A model generated the notes under the pieces. It was not told the origin of the DNA. It did no database searches and saw nothing but the letters and a program-made list of their open reading frames with translations. This document shows positions 1,931-26,409 of a DNA stretch of 37,455 nucleotides, one piece after another (position 1 is the first letter of the stretch; each line of letters opens with the position of its first letter). Made by a program: the position numbers and the translations under genes. The stretch lies in UHGV virus genome UHGV-0248180, one strand, 5' to 3'. Source of the stretch: a virus.

Positions 1931-2291
1931 ACCCTTAAAGTATGAATTAAAGCGTCAGATAATTTCTACTGATGTATTAATAGGTCCTGTTATACTCATA
2001 TCATTTGTAATTCTATTGATTATTGGAGGTGTTTTAGATGTTATGACTGATATTGATTCTGGCGAAATACTTGTATTAATGCTAATTCTTCCATTAATAG
2101 TTCCACTTTTATTAGTACCTGTAAATTGGGTAGGATACTGGTATCAAGGAAGACATTATCGTAAACGCGTACGTGATTGGAAAGCACAGTGTGAAAAGAT
2201 TAAAAAGGAACACCAGCTTAAACTTGCTGCGTATGAATTTGATGAAATTATGAAATTTGTTAAGGAATCACGATGCAAAAGCCAAAACTAA
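1899..2291 (+). CDS. hypothetical membrane protein (130 aa), two predicted TM helices, C-terminal FVKESRCK motif
   Basis: ORF; hydrophobic segments; start uncertain (overlaps upstream gene by 32 nt). Confidence 0.5.
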   Translation: MSKPSMYLPSKPLKYELKRQIISTDVLIGPVILISFVILLIIGGVLDVMTDIDSGEILVLMLILPLIVPLLLVPVNWVGYWYQGRHYRKRVRDWKAQCEKIKKEHQLKLAAYEFDEIMKFVKESRCKSQN

Positions 2292-2647
2292 ATAAAGTCA
2301 AATATTCGCTTCCTGAGTCATTTTTAATTTTTGCTGTGGCGTTGGCTGCAGCTCTTGCTGGTAGTCTTATTGGATTAATGATTGATTGTATTATTTTAAA
2401 CATCCGCAGTAATGTCAGCGGTATAGTAGATATAATAGAAGTTTGGAGTGAACTTCATTATACTATAGCGATTTCATTATTTTCATTCTTTGGTATTATT
2501 TTATATTTTCATTATGATAATTTTAAAATAAATTGGCAAAGAAAAAAGGATTACAAAATACAATTAAAAGAATATAATAACTACATGTCTTATATTGAAA
2601 ATGAATCAATGAAAGAATTCGTGAATGATTGTAGGAAAATCAAATGA
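2273..2647 (+). CDS. hypothetical membrane protein (124 aa), C-terminal FVNDCRK motif
   Basis: ORF; hydrophobic segments; paralogous tail shared with neighbours. Confidence 0.55.
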   Translation: MQKPKLNKVKYSLPESFLIFAVALAAALAGSLIGLMIDCIILNIRSNVSGIVDIIEVWSELHYTIAISLFSFFGIILYFHYDNFKINWQRKKDYKIQLKEYNNYMSYIENESMKEFVNDCRKIK

Positions 2648-3128
2648 TTTTAAAAACTCGCTGGTATGATTTAGATGATGGGGATGATGGCATTTCAGTT
2701 GATAGAGTTGACTGGAATGGCTGTTCCGAAGATATGAAAAATTTGCTGATTAGGGAGTTTAGAATGGGATATCAACCAGTTAAGCCATCTACTGCAACAG
2801 ATGATAAATTCGTGTGTATTCATAATGGTCGCGCTAAATTAACGAACACTGATTGGTTCACAGATAAGATTATGATTCTGTGGTATATTATTAGTTTTCC
2901 TGTGACATCATTTATATTTTGCTTCTTTGGAGAAAGTCCAGTAGACAGAACGGGAGATTGGATTATTTTAACCATACTTGTTAATATTTTTACAGCAGCA
3001 ATATTATCTGGGATATGGTACACGTTCATTGAAATGCCATGGCGTTTACGCAGACAGCAAAAGATTTATGATGAAAAGAAATATGCTCAAAATTTAAATA
3101 GCTTTATCACTGAATGCAGGAAATTAAA

Positions 3129-4172: not shown

Positions 4173-4490
4173 ATGAAAACGTATAAAGAATTTATTGCAG
4201 AATCTGCTGCAGGACAACGTGTAGAAGGCGGTTATATCTGGATTGAACAAGTTGAGCCGCCAAGTCGCACTTCTACAGGTAAATGGAAAATCACTGTTGA
4301 TGGTCCTGGTGGTAAACGTAGGACTCTTAAAGAAATTAACGGGTACTATGAAGAAGCTCTTTCTGACGCGGGTACTTATATGATGCAAATCATGATTAAA
4401 AACCCAGAAAATCGTTTTGCGGCTAGAGTTTTCCGCCGTATTGGAAATAAGCTTTATGATGCATATTCTAAAAACTTCCCTAAAGAATAA
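4173..4490 (+). CDS. Capsid-targeted internal protein (105 aa) with N-terminal CTS MKTYKEFIAE
   Basis: N-terminal capsid targeting sequence typical of T-even internal proteins; located in the ip locus next to e. Confidence 0.75.
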   Translation: MKTYKEFIAESAAGQRVEGGYIWIEQVEPPSRTSTGKWKITVDGPGGKRRTLKEINGYYEEALSDAGTYMMQIMIKNPENRFAARVFRRIGNKLYDAYSKNFPKE

Positions 4491-4506
4491 AAATTAAAGG
4501 ATACAC

Positions 4507-4980
4507 ATGAAAACATATCAAGAATTTATTACTGAAGCAGCTATTAATTCTCAAATTATTGCTGAATCTTTTACTGATCTTTTGAAATTTAAAAAAGGAC
4601 AGAAAATCACTGCTGTATTGGATGACGGTACAGAAGTTGAGATGGATGTACAAGGATATAATTATGCAGTAGATGGAAAACTGTATAATAAATCTCATGC
4701 TAAATTTGATTCATTTGACGACTTTGTTAATACAGTTGAAGATGAAAAAACTCGTAGATCCATTGCAACGGGTGATGCTAAGGTTCTTATGGCACATGGC
4801 CATGAACGCATTCGCGCTAAGCAGAATAAAATGGGTGAAGATAATTTTGCATTAGTTGGTTATCAATCTGGTAAACAAACTTATGGTTATCAACGTACTG
4901 CTACCATGTATAACAAAAATGGTAAAATTGCCTTTGTGAATAGTAAAGGTTCTATTCAGTACGTCAAATCATTCAAATAA
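4507..4980 (+). CDS. Capsid-targeted internal protein (157 aa) with N-terminal CTS MKTYQEFITE
   Basis: CTS motif; leader and RBS nearly identical to the preceding ip gene. Confidence 0.75.
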   Translation: MKTYQEFITEAAINSQIIAESFTDLLKFKKGQKITAVLDDGTEVEMDVQGYNYAVDGKLYNKSHAKFDSFDDFVNTVEDEKTRRSIATGDAKVLMAHGHERIRAKQNKMGEDNFALVGYQSGKQTYGYQRTATMYNKNGKIAFVNSKGSIQYVKSFK

Positions 4981-5994: not shown

Positions 5995-6357
5995 ATGAAA
6001 GCATATCAAATTCTTGAAGGCACACATAAAGGTACTATTTATTTTGAAGATGGTATTCAAGCACGAATTATTGTCTCTAAAACCTTTAAAGAGGACTCTT
6101 TTGTAGACCCAGAAATTTTCTATGGTTTGCATGCCCGTGAAATTGAAATTGAGCAACAGCCTACAGTTAAAATTGAAGGTGGTCAACACCTGAACGTTAA
6201 CGTTCTGCGTCGCGAAACTCTGGAAGATGCAGTTAAGCATCCGGAAAAATATCCGCAGCTGACCATCCGTGTATCCGGTTATGCAGTTCGCTTTAACTCT
6301 CTGACTCCGGAACAGCAGCGCGACGTTATTGCTCGTACCTTTACTGAGAGTTTGTAA
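5995..6357 (+). CDS. Autonomous glycyl-radical cofactor, GrcA/YfiD-like (120 aa)
   Basis: C-terminal ~65 aa ([60 protein letters not shown]) match E. coli GrcA as I recall it, including glycyl-radical motif RVSGY; codon usage of that segment is host-like. Confidence 0.9.
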
Positions 6358-12370: not shown

Positions 12371-12475
12371 ATGAAAGTTTTGCTTGTTGTGTATGTGATG
12401 ATTCAATATAATTACCCAATGTTTACTTATAATTTGGTGAACAACATTATTGATATGGTTCAGAGGAGTATGTAA
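12371..12475 (+). CDS. possible small hydrophobic leader peptide (34 aa)
   Basis: Strong GAGGAG RBS 12361-12366 and ATG 12371 just downstream of promoter; very short. Confidence 0.3.
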   Translation: MKVLLVVYVMIQYNYPMFTYNLVNNIIDMVQRSM

Positions 12476-13020
12476 TGATGGGAGAGGCGAAACGATTAGT
12501 ATTAGAAGTTAGTTCACTTTTTGGTGAATTGGCTATAGAAAAAGTAAATAATATGTATCGTTTGACGCAAGAAGACGATATGCTATATTTTACGCCTAGT
12601 GAAATCATTCATTTAACCCAAATTGAAAATCCTTATACTGATAAAATTGTAAGCATTAATGATGAGCATAAAATTCATTTTTATTCTTCATGCCCAGGAT
12701 TTAATATTGAAAGCGAGTCAATATGCTTATCAGTTATCCATTGGGATAGTTTTATAGATAAGATTAAATATTTTTATTATTCTAATGAAAGAAAACACAG
12801 TTTAAAATGGTTTAAAAATTGCAATGCTATTATTACTAACGCTTGCAATCAGAATGATGAAACTGTTTTAAATGTATCAAAATGTTATGAAGATGGAGAT
12901 GTCTTAACTATTCGTCAAATTGATGATTTTCGATCGCATATTGTCACATTTACCAAAGACGAAGCTATTGCGCTAAAGACTTATCTTGATTCTGTCATTC
13001 CAACTATGATTTCAAAGTGA
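12475..13020 (+). CDS. hypothetical protein (181 aa), paralog of 13027 ORF
   Basis: ORF with GGAG RBS; C-terminal (A/E)AxALKTYLDSVIPTM resembles EAMIKYLTTVTPSM of the next gene. Confidence 0.6.
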   Translation: MMGEAKRLVLEVSSLFGELAIEKVNNMYRLTQEDDMLYFTPSEIIHLTQIENPYTDKIVSINDEHKIHFYSSCPGFNIESESICLSVIHWDSFIDKIKYFYYSNERKHSLKWFKNCNAIITNACNQNDETVLNVSKCYEDGDVLTIRQIDDFRSHIVTFTKDEAIALKTYLDSVIPTMISK

Positions 13021-13026
13021 GGAAAT

Positions 13027-13548
13027 ATGTATATTTCAAGTGAAAGTGGTTTAATTCGTGTTGAATTTAAAAATGATATTTTCCTTATTCAAGGAGATGA
13101 TATTATTAAAATGAGTTATGACGAAATCAAGAAAATTTGTCATACTCTTGAAAGCCGTGGAAACGTAAATGCTGTTATTGATATTGGTGATTTATGGGTA
13201 ACGCTTTATAAAGTATCCGAAGGATTTAACATTGAAGATGAAAATAACATTTTAGCTATTGATAAAAGAACTGATTTGTTTGATGTATTAAAAGCCTATG
13301 AACAGTCAAACGGTGGAAGAAAAGCTGCATTGATTTATCAAAAACCGCATTCATGTGGAACTGCTTCAATCATTTCAAATATTGAAGACGAATCTGATAC
13401 TTATATGTGTGTTTTAAAAGCTGGTGGTGACCGTCATCCGGATTTTATTTCTATTCGTCAAAACAATGGAGAAATTTCATTATCAAAATCAGAAGCTGAA
13501 GCCATGATTAAGTATTTAACAACCGTTACGCCTTCAATGAAAGGATAA
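13027..13548 (+). CDS. hypothetical protein (173 aa), paralog of 12475 ORF
   Basis: ORF; shared C-terminal motif. Confidence 0.6.
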   Translation: MYISSESGLIRVEFKNDIFLIQGDDIIKMSYDEIKKICHTLESRGNVNAVIDIGDLWVTLYKVSEGFNIEDENNILAIDKRTDLFDVLKAYEQSNGGRKAALIYQKPHSCGTASIISNIEDESDTYMCVLKAGGDRHPDFISIRQNNGEISLSKSEAEAMIKYLTTVTPSMKG

Positions 13549-13550
13549 TT

Positions 13551-13997
13551 ATGATTATTAATGAAAACTCTTGGCACGTTCGTATGCATGATTTCTTTTA
13601 CTGGCAGCGTCCGAATTCTTTGTGTAAATATTTCTGGAAAATGGCGTGGACGTTCTTAGTTATCGGTGTTATTTGCATATCGGGGCTATTAGGTAGTTGG
13701 GTGGTAGGACAAGCCATTTTAAGCCAATTTGGCGTTACAGGATTCTGGCTTCTACACGCAGGCGGAACCTTATTTGGTGTACTGATATTTGCTACGATTG
13801 TCATTATTGCAGTAGGTATAGCATATATTATAGCTAAGATTTCAGGTTTATGGGAAGGAGTCAGGTATGATAGAGAGTGGAAGCGTCAACAAGACGAAGA
13901 AAATGGTATTGAACATCCTAAGAGTGTAATCGTTGAATACCTTAAAGCTAGTAAATCTAAAATCTGCCCTATGATAGAATTTAAGGATGTTAAATGA
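13551..13997 (+). CDS. hypothetical integral membrane protein (148 aa)
   Basis: ORF; long hydrophobic segments (WTFLVIGVICISGLLGSWVV... GTLFGVLIFATIVIIAVGIAYII). Confidence 0.6.
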   Translation: MIINENSWHVRMHDFFYWQRPNSLCKYFWKMAWTFLVIGVICISGLLGSWVVGQAILSQFGVTGFWLLHAGGTLFGVLIFATIVIIAVGIAYIIAKISGLWEGVRYDREWKRQQDEENGIEHPKSVIVEYLKASKSKICPMIEFKDVK

Positions 13998-22913: not shown

Positions 22914-23399
22914 ATGATTACAGTAGATAAGTGGTTTAGAATTAATCGTGTTGATACAGGGCTATGTAATTACTGGCCGGAACTTAGTGCAGGTACTGTC
23001 TTTAAAGTTCGTGAACTTACAAAAGAATGTGAAGATGATATAGAGCCTGATACTGGAATTATTGAAATTGAACTTTCCGACGGAAAGATTATTAACATCT
23101 ATGATAAGCCAATTACGTATTGGTGCTTGTGGAATGCTGAATCCGTTGAAAATGGCGAAATTGAAGAAGTTGTAGAGAGAACTAGCCAAGATGTTCAGAA
23201 GCCTAAAGCCGCTTTTCAAGGTGAACGTATTTCATATGCATTAGCTAAAGTGGCATTGAAAAAAGATATTGATGATTATGAAGGTAACCTGATGCAAGCT
23301 GCGGCAGAATATATTGAATGGCTTGAAACACAAAATTCTTTTTCTGACCAAATGATTCGGCAATATAAGCGATTGCATCAAATGTTTTATAATACTTGA
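22914..23399 (+). CDS. pin: Pin, inhibitor of host Lon protease (161 aa)
   Basis: Synteny nrdC-pin-49 and 161-aa size as in T4; GGAG RBS before ATG 22914 (track start 22896 is TTG). Confidence 0.8.
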   Translation: MITVDKWFRINRVDTGLCNYWPELSAGTVFKVRELTKECEDDIEPDTGIIEIELSDGKIINIYDKPITYWCLWNAESVENGEIEEVVERTSQDVQKPKAAFQGERISYALAKVALKKDIDDYEGNLMQAAAEYIEWLETQNSFSDQMIRQYKRLHQMFYNT

Positions 23400-23435
23400 A
23401 AAAACTCAAAATTCTTTTTCTGACAAGGCATTTTA

Positions 23436-23612
23436 ATGAAAACCGAATTGGTTTATACTGAAAAGTTAAATGGCGGTAAGGTTTGGAAACTTTTTATTAA
23501 AGGACATTCTACGGACCCTCATATGACCACTTGCGTAGGAACCTATTCTCGTCCTACTAAAAAGATGATTCGACAGTATAAACGATTGCATCGAATGTTT
23601 TACAATACTTAA
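23436..23612 (+). CDS. small ORF (58 aa) whose last 15 codons duplicate the C-terminus of Pin
   Basis: ORF below track cutoff; 48-nt segment 23565-23612 is ~87% identical to 23352-23399. Confidence 0.35.
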   Translation: MKTELVYTEKLNGGKVWKLFIKGHSTDPHMTTCVGTYSRPTKKMIRQYKRLHRMFYNT

Positions 23613-23623
23613 AAATAATAAAT

Positions 23624-23648
23624 ACCCTTATCTATTTAAGGTAAGGGT
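23624..23648 (+). promoter_or_regulatory. Hairpin (ACCCTTA / TAAGGGT) overlapping the gene 49 ribosome binding site
   Basis: 7-bp inverted repeat; 3' arm contains AAGGG just upstream of ATG 23655. Confidence 0.5.
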
Positions 23649-23654
23649 TTTATT

Positions 23655-24128
23655 ATGTTATTGACTGGCAAATTATATAAAGAAGAAAAACAGAAATTTT
23701 ATGATGCACAAAACGGTAAATGTTTAATTTGCCAACGAGAACTAAATCCTGATGTTCAAGCTAATCATCTTGATCATGACCATGAATTAAATGGACCAAA
23801 AGCAGGAAAGGTACGTGGATTGCTTTGTAATCTCTGCAATGCCGCAGAAGGTCAAATGAAGCATAAATTTAATCGTTCTGGATTAAAGGGACAAGGTGTT
23901 GATTATCTTGAATGGTTAGAAAATTTACTTACTTATTTAAAATCCGATTACACCCAAAATAATATTCACCCTAACTTTGTTGGAGATAAATCAAAGGAAT
24001 TTTCTCGTTTAGGAAAAGAGGAAATGATGGCCGAGATGCTTCAAAGAGGATTTGAATATAATGAATCTGACACCAAAACACAGTTAATAGCTTCATTTAA
24101 GAAGCAGCTTAGAAAGAGTTTAAAATGA
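23655..24128 (+). CDS. 49: Endonuclease VII, Holliday junction resolvase (157 aa)
   Basis: Translation matches T4 gp49 from memory; zinc motif CLICQ..CNLC. Confidence 0.95.
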   Translation: MLLTGKLYKEEKQKFYDAQNGKCLICQRELNPDVQANHLDHDHELNGPKAGKVRGLLCNLCNAAEGQMKHKFNRSGLKGQGVDYLEWLENLLTYLKSDYTQNNIHPNFVGDKSKEFSRLGKEEMMAEMLQRGFEYNESDTKTQLIASFKKQLRKSLK

Positions 24129-25942
24129 CAATTGAAAAAGAAATTGAAGGATTGATTCATAAAACTAATAAAGACCTTTTAAACGAGAATGCTAATAAAG
24201 ATTCTCGTGTTTTTCCAACTCAACGGGACCTTATGGCTGGTATTGTGTCTAAACACATTGCCAAAAATATGGTCCCGTCTTTTATTATGAAAGCGCATGA
24301 AAGCGGAATTATTCATTTCCATGATATTGATTATTCCCCTGCTCTTCCATTTACTAATTGTTGTTTAGTAGATTTAAAAGGAATGCTTGAAAACGGATTT
24401 AAGCTTGGTAATGCACAGATTGAAACTCCTAAATCAATTGGCGTTGCTACTGCAATTATGGCGCAAATTACTGCGCAAGTTGCTTCCCATCAATACGGCG
24501 GAACGACTTTTGCGAATGTAGATAAAGTACTTTCTCCTTATGTTAAACGCACCTATGCAAAACATATTGAGGATGCAGAAAAATGGCAAATCGCTGATGC
24601 GTTGAATTATGCTCAATCTAAAACAGAAAAAGACGTATACGATGCATTTCAAGCTTATGAATATGAAGTAAACACTCTCTTTAGTTCAAACGGACAAACG
24701 CCTTTTGTAACAATTACATTTGGTACGGGAACTGACTGGACTGAACGAATGATTCAGAAAGCAATTCTGAAAAATCGTATTAAAGGTCTTGGTCGTGATG
24801 GGATAACTCCTATTTTCCCTAAGCTTGTTATGTTCGTTGAAGAAGGCGTTAATCTTTATAAAGACGATCCGAATTACGACATTAAGCAACTTGCTCTAGA
24901 GTGTGCAAGCAAAAGGATGTATCCTGATATTATTTCAGCTAAGAACAATAAAGCTATCACTGGTTCATCTGTTCCTGTTTCTCCAATGGGTTGCCGTAGT
25001 TTCTTGAGCGTATGGAAAGATTCGACTGGTAATGAAATTCTTGATGGACGTAATAATCTTGGTGTTGTAACACTGAATCTTCCTCGCATCGCGTTAGATT
25101 CTTATATTGGAACACAGTTCAATGAACAGAAATTTGCTGAATTATTCAATGAACGAATGGATTTATGTTTTGAAGCTTTGATGTGTAGAATTAGTTCCTT
25201 AAAAGGAGTTAAAGCTACTGTTGCTCCTATTCTTTACCAAGAAGGTGCATTCGGGGTTCGTCTTAAACCTGATGACGACATAATTGAGTTATTTAAAAAC
25301 GGTAGAAGTTCAGTGTCTTTAGGATACATTGGTATTCACGAATTGAATATTCTTGTCGGTCGTGATATTGGACGAGAAATTTTAACTAAAATGAATGCTC
25401 ATCTTAAACAGTGGACTGAAAGAACTGGATTTGCTTTTAGCTTGTATTCTACTCCCGCTGAAAACCTTTGTTATCGCTTCTGTAAACTTGATACTGAAAA
25501 ATATGGAAGTGTAAAAGATGTTACTGATAAAGGCTGGTACACTAATAGTTTCCATGTTTCAGTAGAAGAAAATATTACTCCGTTTGAAAAGATTTCTCGC
25601 GAAGCCCCATATCATTTCATTGCGACAGGTGGTCACATTTCTTATGTTGAACTTCCTGATATGAAAAATAACTTAAAAGGTCTTGAGGCCGTGTGGGATT
25701 ATGCTGCACAGCATTTAGATTATTTTGGTGTTAATATGCCAGTAGATAAGTGTTTTACATGCGGAAGTACCCATGAAATGACTCCTACTGAAAACGGATT
25801 TGTTTGTTCTATTTGTGGAGAAACTGATCCTAAAAAGATGAACACAATAAGAAGAACATGTGGTTATTTGGGAAATCCGAACGAGCGCGGATTTAATCTT
25901 GGCAAAAATAAAGAAATCATGCATAGGGTTAAACACCAATGA
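24125..25942 (+). CDS. nrdD: Anaerobic ribonucleoside-triphosphate reductase NrdD (class III), 605 aa, uninterrupted
   Basis: C-terminal glycyl-radical motif RRTCGYLG and zinc ribbon CFTCGS..CSICG. Confidence 0.95.
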   Translation: MTIEKEIEGLIHKTNKDLLNENANKDSRVFPTQRDLMAGIVSKHIAKNMVPSFIMKAHESGIIHFHDIDYSPALPFTNCCLVDLKGMLENGFKLGNAQIETPKSIGVATAIMAQITAQVASHQYGGTTFANVDKVLSPYVKRTYAKHIEDAEKWQIADALNYAQSKTEKDVYDAFQAYEYEVNTLFSSNGQTPFVTITFGTGTDWTERMIQKAILKNRIKGLGRDGITPIFPKLVMFVEEGVNLYKDDPNYDIKQLALECASKRMYPDIISAKNNKAITGSSVPVSPMGCRSFLSVWKDSTGNEILDGRNNLGVVTLNLPRIALDSYIGTQFNEQKFAELFNERMDLCFEALMCRISSLKGVKATVAPILYQEGAFGVRLKPDDDIIELFKNGRSSVSLGYIGIHELNILVGRDIGREILTKMNAHLKQWTERTGFAFSLYSTPAENLCYRFCKLDTEKYGSVKDVTDKGWYTNSFHVSVEENITPFEKISREAPYHFIATGGHISYVELPDMKNNLKGLEAVWDYAAQHLDYFGVNMPVDKCFTCGSTHEMTPTENGFVCSICGETDPKKMNTIRRTCGYLGNPNERGFNLGKNKEIMHRVKHQ

Positions 25943-26409
25943 ATTACGATAGATTTTATCCCTGCGATTTTGTGAATGGCCCTGGATGCAGGGTCGTTCT
26001 TTTCGTTACAGGTTGTTTGCATAAATGTGAAGGGTGTTATAATAAATCAACATGGAATGCTAGAAATGGTATTCCATTCACTGGTGAAACACTAGAACAA
26101 TTAATTGAATGTTTGAATAATGATTATATAGAAGGATTAACTATAACTGGAGGAGACCCTCTCTATCCTGATAACCGAGATGTTATTCATTGCATCGTTC
26201 AAACAGTAAAAAATCTTTATCCCAATAAAAGCATTTGGTTGTGGACAGGATATAAGTTTGAAGATATTAAACAACTAGAAATGCTTAAATATGTTGATGT
26301 TATTATTGATGGGAAGTATGAGAAAAATCTTCCGACTAAAAAGCTGTGGCGAGGATCAGATAATCAGCGACTTTGGTCAAATACCGATGGGGTGTGGAAA
26401 CATGATTAA
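25939..26409 (+). CDS. nrdG: Anaerobic RNR activating enzyme NrdG (radical SAM), 156 aa
   Basis: Radical-SAM cluster motif CLHKCEGC; ATGA overlap with nrdD. Confidence 0.93.
   Translation: MNYDRFYPCDFVNGPGCRVVLFVTGCLHKCEGCYNKSTWNARNGIPFTGETLEQLIECLNNDYIEGLTITGGDPLYPDNRDVIHCIVQTVKNLYPNKSIWLWTGYKFEDIKQLEMLKYVDVIIDGKYEKNLPTKKLWRGSDNQRLWSNTDGVWKHD

Follow-up and report, generated by a model that had tools for sequence, protein, structure and literature searches.

An uninterrupted nrdD gene with an empty intron insertion site in a T4-like phage genome

The nrdD locus and its gene content

The DNA considered here, referred to as the window, is the whole 37,455-nt stretch of the virus genome UHGV-0248180. 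Megablast identifies it as the early region of a Tequatrovirus (T4-like) phage, and the 25-kb surroundings of nrdD are ~97.5% identical to phage YUEEL01 and others. The nrdD gene, assigned from its ORF, Pfam and comparison with T4, encodes the large subunit of the anaerobic (class III) ribonucleoside-triphosphate reductase. It is a single ATG-initiated ORF of 605 codons on the plus strand (24125..25942), with no stop or frameshift in the ORF list. An ORF of this length in DNA of 36% G+C that also matches Pfam and T4 is beyond chance. The Pfam family NRDD (PF13597) matches residues 21-604 of the protein with an E value of 3.3e-171 and a score of 571 bits (the cut-off is 26.2), and profile positions 1-562 of 562 are covered. 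A glycine-radical domain (Gly_radical) is found at E 1.2e-25, and the glycyl-radical motif RTCGY occupies residues 577-581, with a four-cysteine zinc ribbon (CFTC...CSIC, residues 543-564) just upstream. The predicted product is thus a full-length class III anaerobic ribonucleotide reductase. Spliced T4 NrdD, also 605 aa long, differs from it at only 2 residues, and this 603/605 identity points to anaerobic NTP reductase activity in the window's protein as well.

The genes on either side are packed tightly against nrdD. Gene 49, encoding the recombination endonuclease VII (23655..24128, plus strand; Pfam Endonuclease_7 and Endonuc-dimeris), has a stop codon that overlaps the nrdD start codon (ATGA), which leaves no room for a free-standing homing endonuclease gene between the two. 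Downstream, nrdG encodes the radical-SAM activase of NrdD (25939..26409, plus strand; Pfam Fer4_12, E 2.3e-48, and Radical_SAM). Because the start codon of nrdG overlaps the stop codon of nrdD, neither mobC, as in T4, nor segH, as in phage HY03, is found between these two genes. The nrdD gene is probably cotranscribed with gene 49 upstream and the activase gene downstream. A synteny map of the window against T4, spanning e.6 to gene 44, shows extra DNA in T4 at four places: mobD, the nrdD intron, mobC and mobB. Together, mobD, I-TevII, mobC and mobB are all four of the homing-endonuclease genes in this interval of T4.

A preliminary description of this DNA, made from the sequence alone, held that no intron-like or endonuclease sequence was present anywhere in the window. 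The part concerning introns stands. A search with Rfam found no group I intron (RF00028) on either strand of the 37,455 nt, whether with the gathering cut-off or with a limit of E<=1, and the permissive run (E<=1) returned only mir-977 and L20_leader, both at chance level. This negative result is meaningful because the same search applied to the T4 locus, as a positive control, finds Intron_gpI at 105.3 bits (E 7e-28).

The part concerning endonucleases stands for homing enzymes but fails if taken literally. No member of the GIY-YIG, HNH or LAGLIDADG families was found with Pfam and PHROGs among the 41 plus-strand ORFs of at least 110 aa; Pfam was run on 40 of these, and PHROGs on the ORF of gene 44 plus nine ORFs lacking a Pfam match. 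ORFs shorter than 110 aa were covered by tblastn only, in which eight T-even proteins were compared with the window. Here the best E value for MobB, MobC, MobD, I-TevII, the HY03 intron endonuclease, SegH and the endonuclease encoded between gene 49 and nrdD in phage G8 was 0.047. Endonuclease VII (gene 49), gp46/gp47 and RegB are all present in the window, though none is a homing enzyme.

The insertion site and its occupancy among relatives

In T4, nrdD (sunY) is 2851 nt long and is interrupted after ORF nt 538 by a 1033-nt intron that holds the I-TevII ORF. The T4 record gives the gene as a two-piece join with I-TevII inside, in keeping with the preliminary description. BLASTN aligns nt 1-536 and 539-1818 of the window's ORF without gaps to nt 1-536 and 1572-2851 of T4. 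This alignment to both exons, the check that had been proposed, agrees with the ORF list in showing a gene uninterrupted over its 605 codons, and it locates the insertion site with no insertion and no frame disruption there. The T4 intron would sit between positions 24662 and 24663 of the window (ORF nt 538 and 539), and the junction at this exact point is seamless, confirming an intron-minus allele. Apart from the intron, the T4 gene is collinear with the window's in its exons and ~97% identical. The T4 locus differs from the window in having a group IA intron, the 258-aa GIY-YIG enzyme I-TevII, and mobC between nrdD and nrdG.

The empty intron insertion site, the equivalent of the I-TevII homing site, lies at 24653..24684 on the plus strand and was placed by alignment to the T4 exons. 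It reads GCTTATGAAT up to the insertion point and ATGAAGTAAACACTCTCTTTAG after it. In T4, exon 1 ends in ...GCTTATGAGT, the intron ends in ...ACATTG and exon 2 starts with ATGAAGTGAACACG..., which makes the spliced junction GCTTATGAGT followed by ATGAAGTGAACACGTTATTCAG. This spliced junction is the I-TevII site as published, and the enzyme cuts it 13-15 nt past the point of insertion, which corresponds to ~24675-24677 in the window. No other I-TevII substrate is known to have been characterised. As to the recognition sequence, which was also to be checked, the window matches the spliced T4 junction at 26/32 positions, and the canonical site is not present as such. Identity over the same 32 positions is 31/32 to T2 and 32/32 to Escherichia phage ES12. 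The six differences from T4, all synonymous, fall at -2, +8, +14, +15, +17 and +20, and three of them are at or beside the cleavage position.

The closest alleles are all intron-less. Those of the Shigella phages Sf22 and KRT47 are 98.6% identical to the window's nrdD, and that of ES12 is 98.0% identical overall and 100% identical over 300 nt spanning the site. No nrdD identical over the whole gene was found in the phage collection. The window is thus one more isolate or variant of the kind represented by Sf22, KRT47 and ES12. Phage T2 (NC_054931.1) provides the classical intron-less T-even allele. Like the window, it has an uninterrupted 605-codon ORF and the order 49-nrdD-nrdG, in which neighbouring stop and start codons overlap, and it lacks mobC. 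Its nrdD shows 97.5% nucleotide identity to the window's, with 46 scattered mismatches and a single synonymous difference at the site (AAC in the window, AAT in T2).

Occupancy of the site was surveyed with a 300-nt query centred on the insertion point, which matched 695 phage records. The sequence is continuous across the site in 620/695 records and split in ~68 (763 places in 695 records). The split records agree with separate counts of the two introns found at this position: the exact T4 intron in 25 records and an HY03-type intron in 44. The T4 type is carried by T4 stocks, RB55, RB59, PST, U5, G8, fPS-2, EC128, Manna and RPN226. Among the 695 records, ~4% thus have a T4-type intron, ~6% an HY03-type intron and ~89% an empty site. 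One apparent further case, Sf25, where the match runs 177 nt over the query length, has no nrdD insertion; its nrdD is an intact 1818 nt, with a 173-nt spacer before nrdG.

The preliminary description had taken T4 as the norm, and these figures reverse that view, since T4 is the exception among its relatives. An intron-free nrdD is the majority and ordinary state, already known and shared by hundreds of sequenced Tequatroviruses. That some T-even phages have the T4 introns and others do not was, from the late 1980s, the original hint that these introns are mobile (PMC2988022). The nrdD intron is among the mobile ones, and T4 has been described as an outlier in its endonuclease load (PMC2988022). 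The T4-like phage UFV13 has been reported to lack I-TevI, II and III (PMC5931544). What is mildly new here is descriptive: how often the site is occupied, that an HY03-type variant exists and how common it is, and a short co-conversion tract with sharp boundaries, described in the next section, which sets the laboratory homing site apart from natural targets.

The HY03-type intron is also a group I intron. It occupies positions 2018-3062 of the HY03 locus, exactly at the T4 nrdD insertion site, and the gene and the point of insertion (after ...TATGAGT) are those of the window. The HY03 locus differs from the window in carrying a diverged 1045-nt intron, an endonuclease 56% identical to I-TevII, and SegH downstream of nrdD. 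The exon signature flanking this intron is its own, GCG TAT GAG T followed by ATGAAGTAAATACACTTTTCAGC. It outnumbers the T4 type in the database, and the gene that carries it is usually annotated as two separate nrdD genes.

Other relatives differ from the window upstream of nrdD. G8 and fPS-2 have an 822-nt annotated homing endonuclease gene between gene 49 and nrdD (locus positions 51-872), and Manna has a 651-nt ORF there (locus positions 222-872) annotated only as a hypothetical protein. In all three phages, nrdD departs strongly from T4 over its first 225 nt, with ~85 mismatches. As many as three endonuclease genes can therefore be present at the nrdD locus (one upstream, one within the intron and one downstream); the window has none of them.

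Co-conversion at the site and the status of the window as a probable homing recipient

The insertion site is conserved among phages that lack the intron. Across 18 intron-less alleles that are 93-98% identical overall, nucleotide diversity (pi) is 0.025 at the site and 0.052 as the gene mean, and the window's site is the consensus of the intron-less phages. Diversification of the site to escape the endonuclease was considered and rejected, because the site varies less than the gene does on average. The divergence lies instead with T4. It differs from all 18 intron-less alleles at nine positions, six of which fall at nt 537-558, and these six substitutions are common to T4 and the other carriers of its intron and private to intron-bearing phages.

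The other carriers show how this signature is distributed. In PST, Manna, G8, fPS-2, EC128 and RPN226, the intron differs from that of T4 by 0-8 nt in 1033 nt, while the exons differ by 34-168 nt in 1818 nt. In all six, the T4 exon signature is confined to nt 511-566 (outer limits), and by nt 567-576 they regain sequence of the intron-less type, including the window's GGACAAACG. As judged from these alignments, the short shared T4-type signature is a co-conversion tract, with 22-56 nt of donor exon. Nearly identical introns accompanied by a short T4 exon signature in diverse backbones imply recent homing into alleles like the window's. Since the intron-less site is nearly invariant, the recipient alleles of these six carriers most probably had the window's site or a version one base away from it. 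The laboratory I-TevII substrate differs in a consistent way from the natural target sites.

One of the signature positions is predicted to matter for splicing. In the P1 helix of the intron carriers, the G at -2 pairs with C15, a base of the intron's internal guide sequence (exon AUGAGU, intron GCUCAU). In folding calculations, the P1-only structure has an energy of -3.9 kcal/mol with G at -2 and +1.4 kcal/mol with the window's A, and with A the helix is lost from the minimum-free-energy fold. The -2 G is therefore probably needed for the P1 splice-site helix, and the destabilising effect of A would explain why the intron always carries the -2 position along with it.

Taken together, the locus is best explained as a functional, never-interrupted nrdD of a T4-like phage. 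It would encode a glycyl-radical class III ribonucleotide reductase, and the site that a mobile group I intron fills in T4 and a minority of relatives is here empty, in its consensus form. If a phage with the intron coinfected the cell, the GIY-YIG enzyme I-TevII would be expected to cleave this allele ~14 nt past the insertion point. Repair of the double-strand break on the donor template would bring in the intron together with some adjoining donor exon, no less than ORF nt 537-558 and no more than about nt 511-572, and the -2 G for P1 would come with it. We give this explanation as a whole, with the gene as an expected target of I-TevII homing, a probability of about 0.85, and, on the indirect evidence of the co-conversion tracts in other phages, the window's nrdD is a likely potential homing recipient to the same degree.

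The most serious alternative is that the allele is free of the intron through resistance to I-TevII, the synonymous differences in the target (6 in 22 nt) blocking binding or cleavage, so that the phage would be immune and not a naive recipient. Just downstream of the insertion site, the window and T4 differ at 7 positions in 32 nt, more densely than anywhere else in the gene, as this would predict. The exact T4 site is found in 0/20 IMG/VR and 0/18 close intron-less alleles, each of which differs from it at 5-7 positions, and some nine-tenths of relatives are still intron-free. However, the divergence is on the intron-bearing side, with the six differences private to carriers and the intron-less site conserved. 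In addition, the presence of one intron in six backbones that are 2-9% apart, and that return to the intron-less type within ~30 nt of the site, requires recent homing into alleles of just this type. I-TevII has also been reported to cut a merely similar sequence assembled from the intron DNA flanking its ORF (PMC3984707), which indicates that the enzyme tolerates substitutions. Resistance is therefore unlikely, and I-TevII would be expected to cleave the window's own sequence.

A related possibility concerns efficiency. The laboratory I-TevII site may be the co-converted exon of the donor, with natural sites, a conserved variant that differs at 6/22 positions around the cleavage point, being cut much less well. 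This idea is doubtful, on a par with resistance. Such poor cleavage of natural sites could underlie the low frequency of the intron (~10% of records) and, if real, could help explain why ~90% of Tequatroviruses are intron-free despite the high frequency of homing in the laboratory. The finding on the window carries little weight alone, and the data on occupancy, tract and site could inform experiments on homing efficiency and on using phages of this kind as clean chassis free of endonucleases.

Far less probable is that an intron was once present and precisely lost, for example by recombination with cDNA of the spliced mRNA. Such losses belong to the accepted cyclical model for homing endonuclease genes (PMC2988022), and nothing specific favours one here. 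Precise loss would leave the donor exon signature GAG...GTG AAC ACG TTA TTC, and the window is of the intron-less type at 6/6 diagnostic positions, with no trace of past occupancy at any of them. At the level of sequence, replacement of an occupied allele by recombination with an intron-less phage would look the same as never having been invaded.

Other features of the window

Several features outside nrdD also vary among the T4-like phages. Between pin and gene 49, a 213-nt segment is inserted (window 23352-23629) that carries a 58-codon ORF (23436..23612). A direct repeat of 65 nt (82% identity), corresponding to the 3' end of pin, flanks the segment, and as a result the small ORF ends like Pin, in ...MIRQYKRLH(Q/R)MFYNT. 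T4, T2 and RB3 lack the insertion, whereas RB33, NHEP36 and YUEEL01 have an ORF of 177-180 nt there. It looks like a small cassette that is gained or lost by recombination at the duplicated junction.

At window 4209-4980, 771 nt are found where T4 has ipIII, ipII and denV (T4 64942-66379). An ORF at 4507..4980 encodes a 157-aa DUF7412 protein with an N terminus weakly like the ipII/ipIII leader (tblastn E 1e-4). The close relative YUEEL01 has a homologue of denV (endonuclease V), but none was detected in the window.

At the position of T4 mobD (T4 56446-57261), window 13027-13997 has a second y05I-like gene and a 148-aa ORF. This y05I-like gene (13027..13548) is a paralogue of the neighbouring ORF at 12475..13020. 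The latter was suspected of being a homing endonuclease through its homologue in YUEEL01, which is annotated as 'molybdopterin-guanine dinucleotide biosynthesis protein MobD'. Pfam shows it to be y05I-like, without an HNH domain, and the name given in YUEEL01 is a mistake that stems from the T4 gene names mobD.1-mobD.4.

The window also encodes a second glycyl-radical protein beside NrdD. The ORF at 5995..6357 specifies a 120-aa autonomous glycyl-radical cofactor of the GrcA/YfiD type (Pfam Gly_radical, E 2.5e-18) and is the homologue of vs.6, known from T4.
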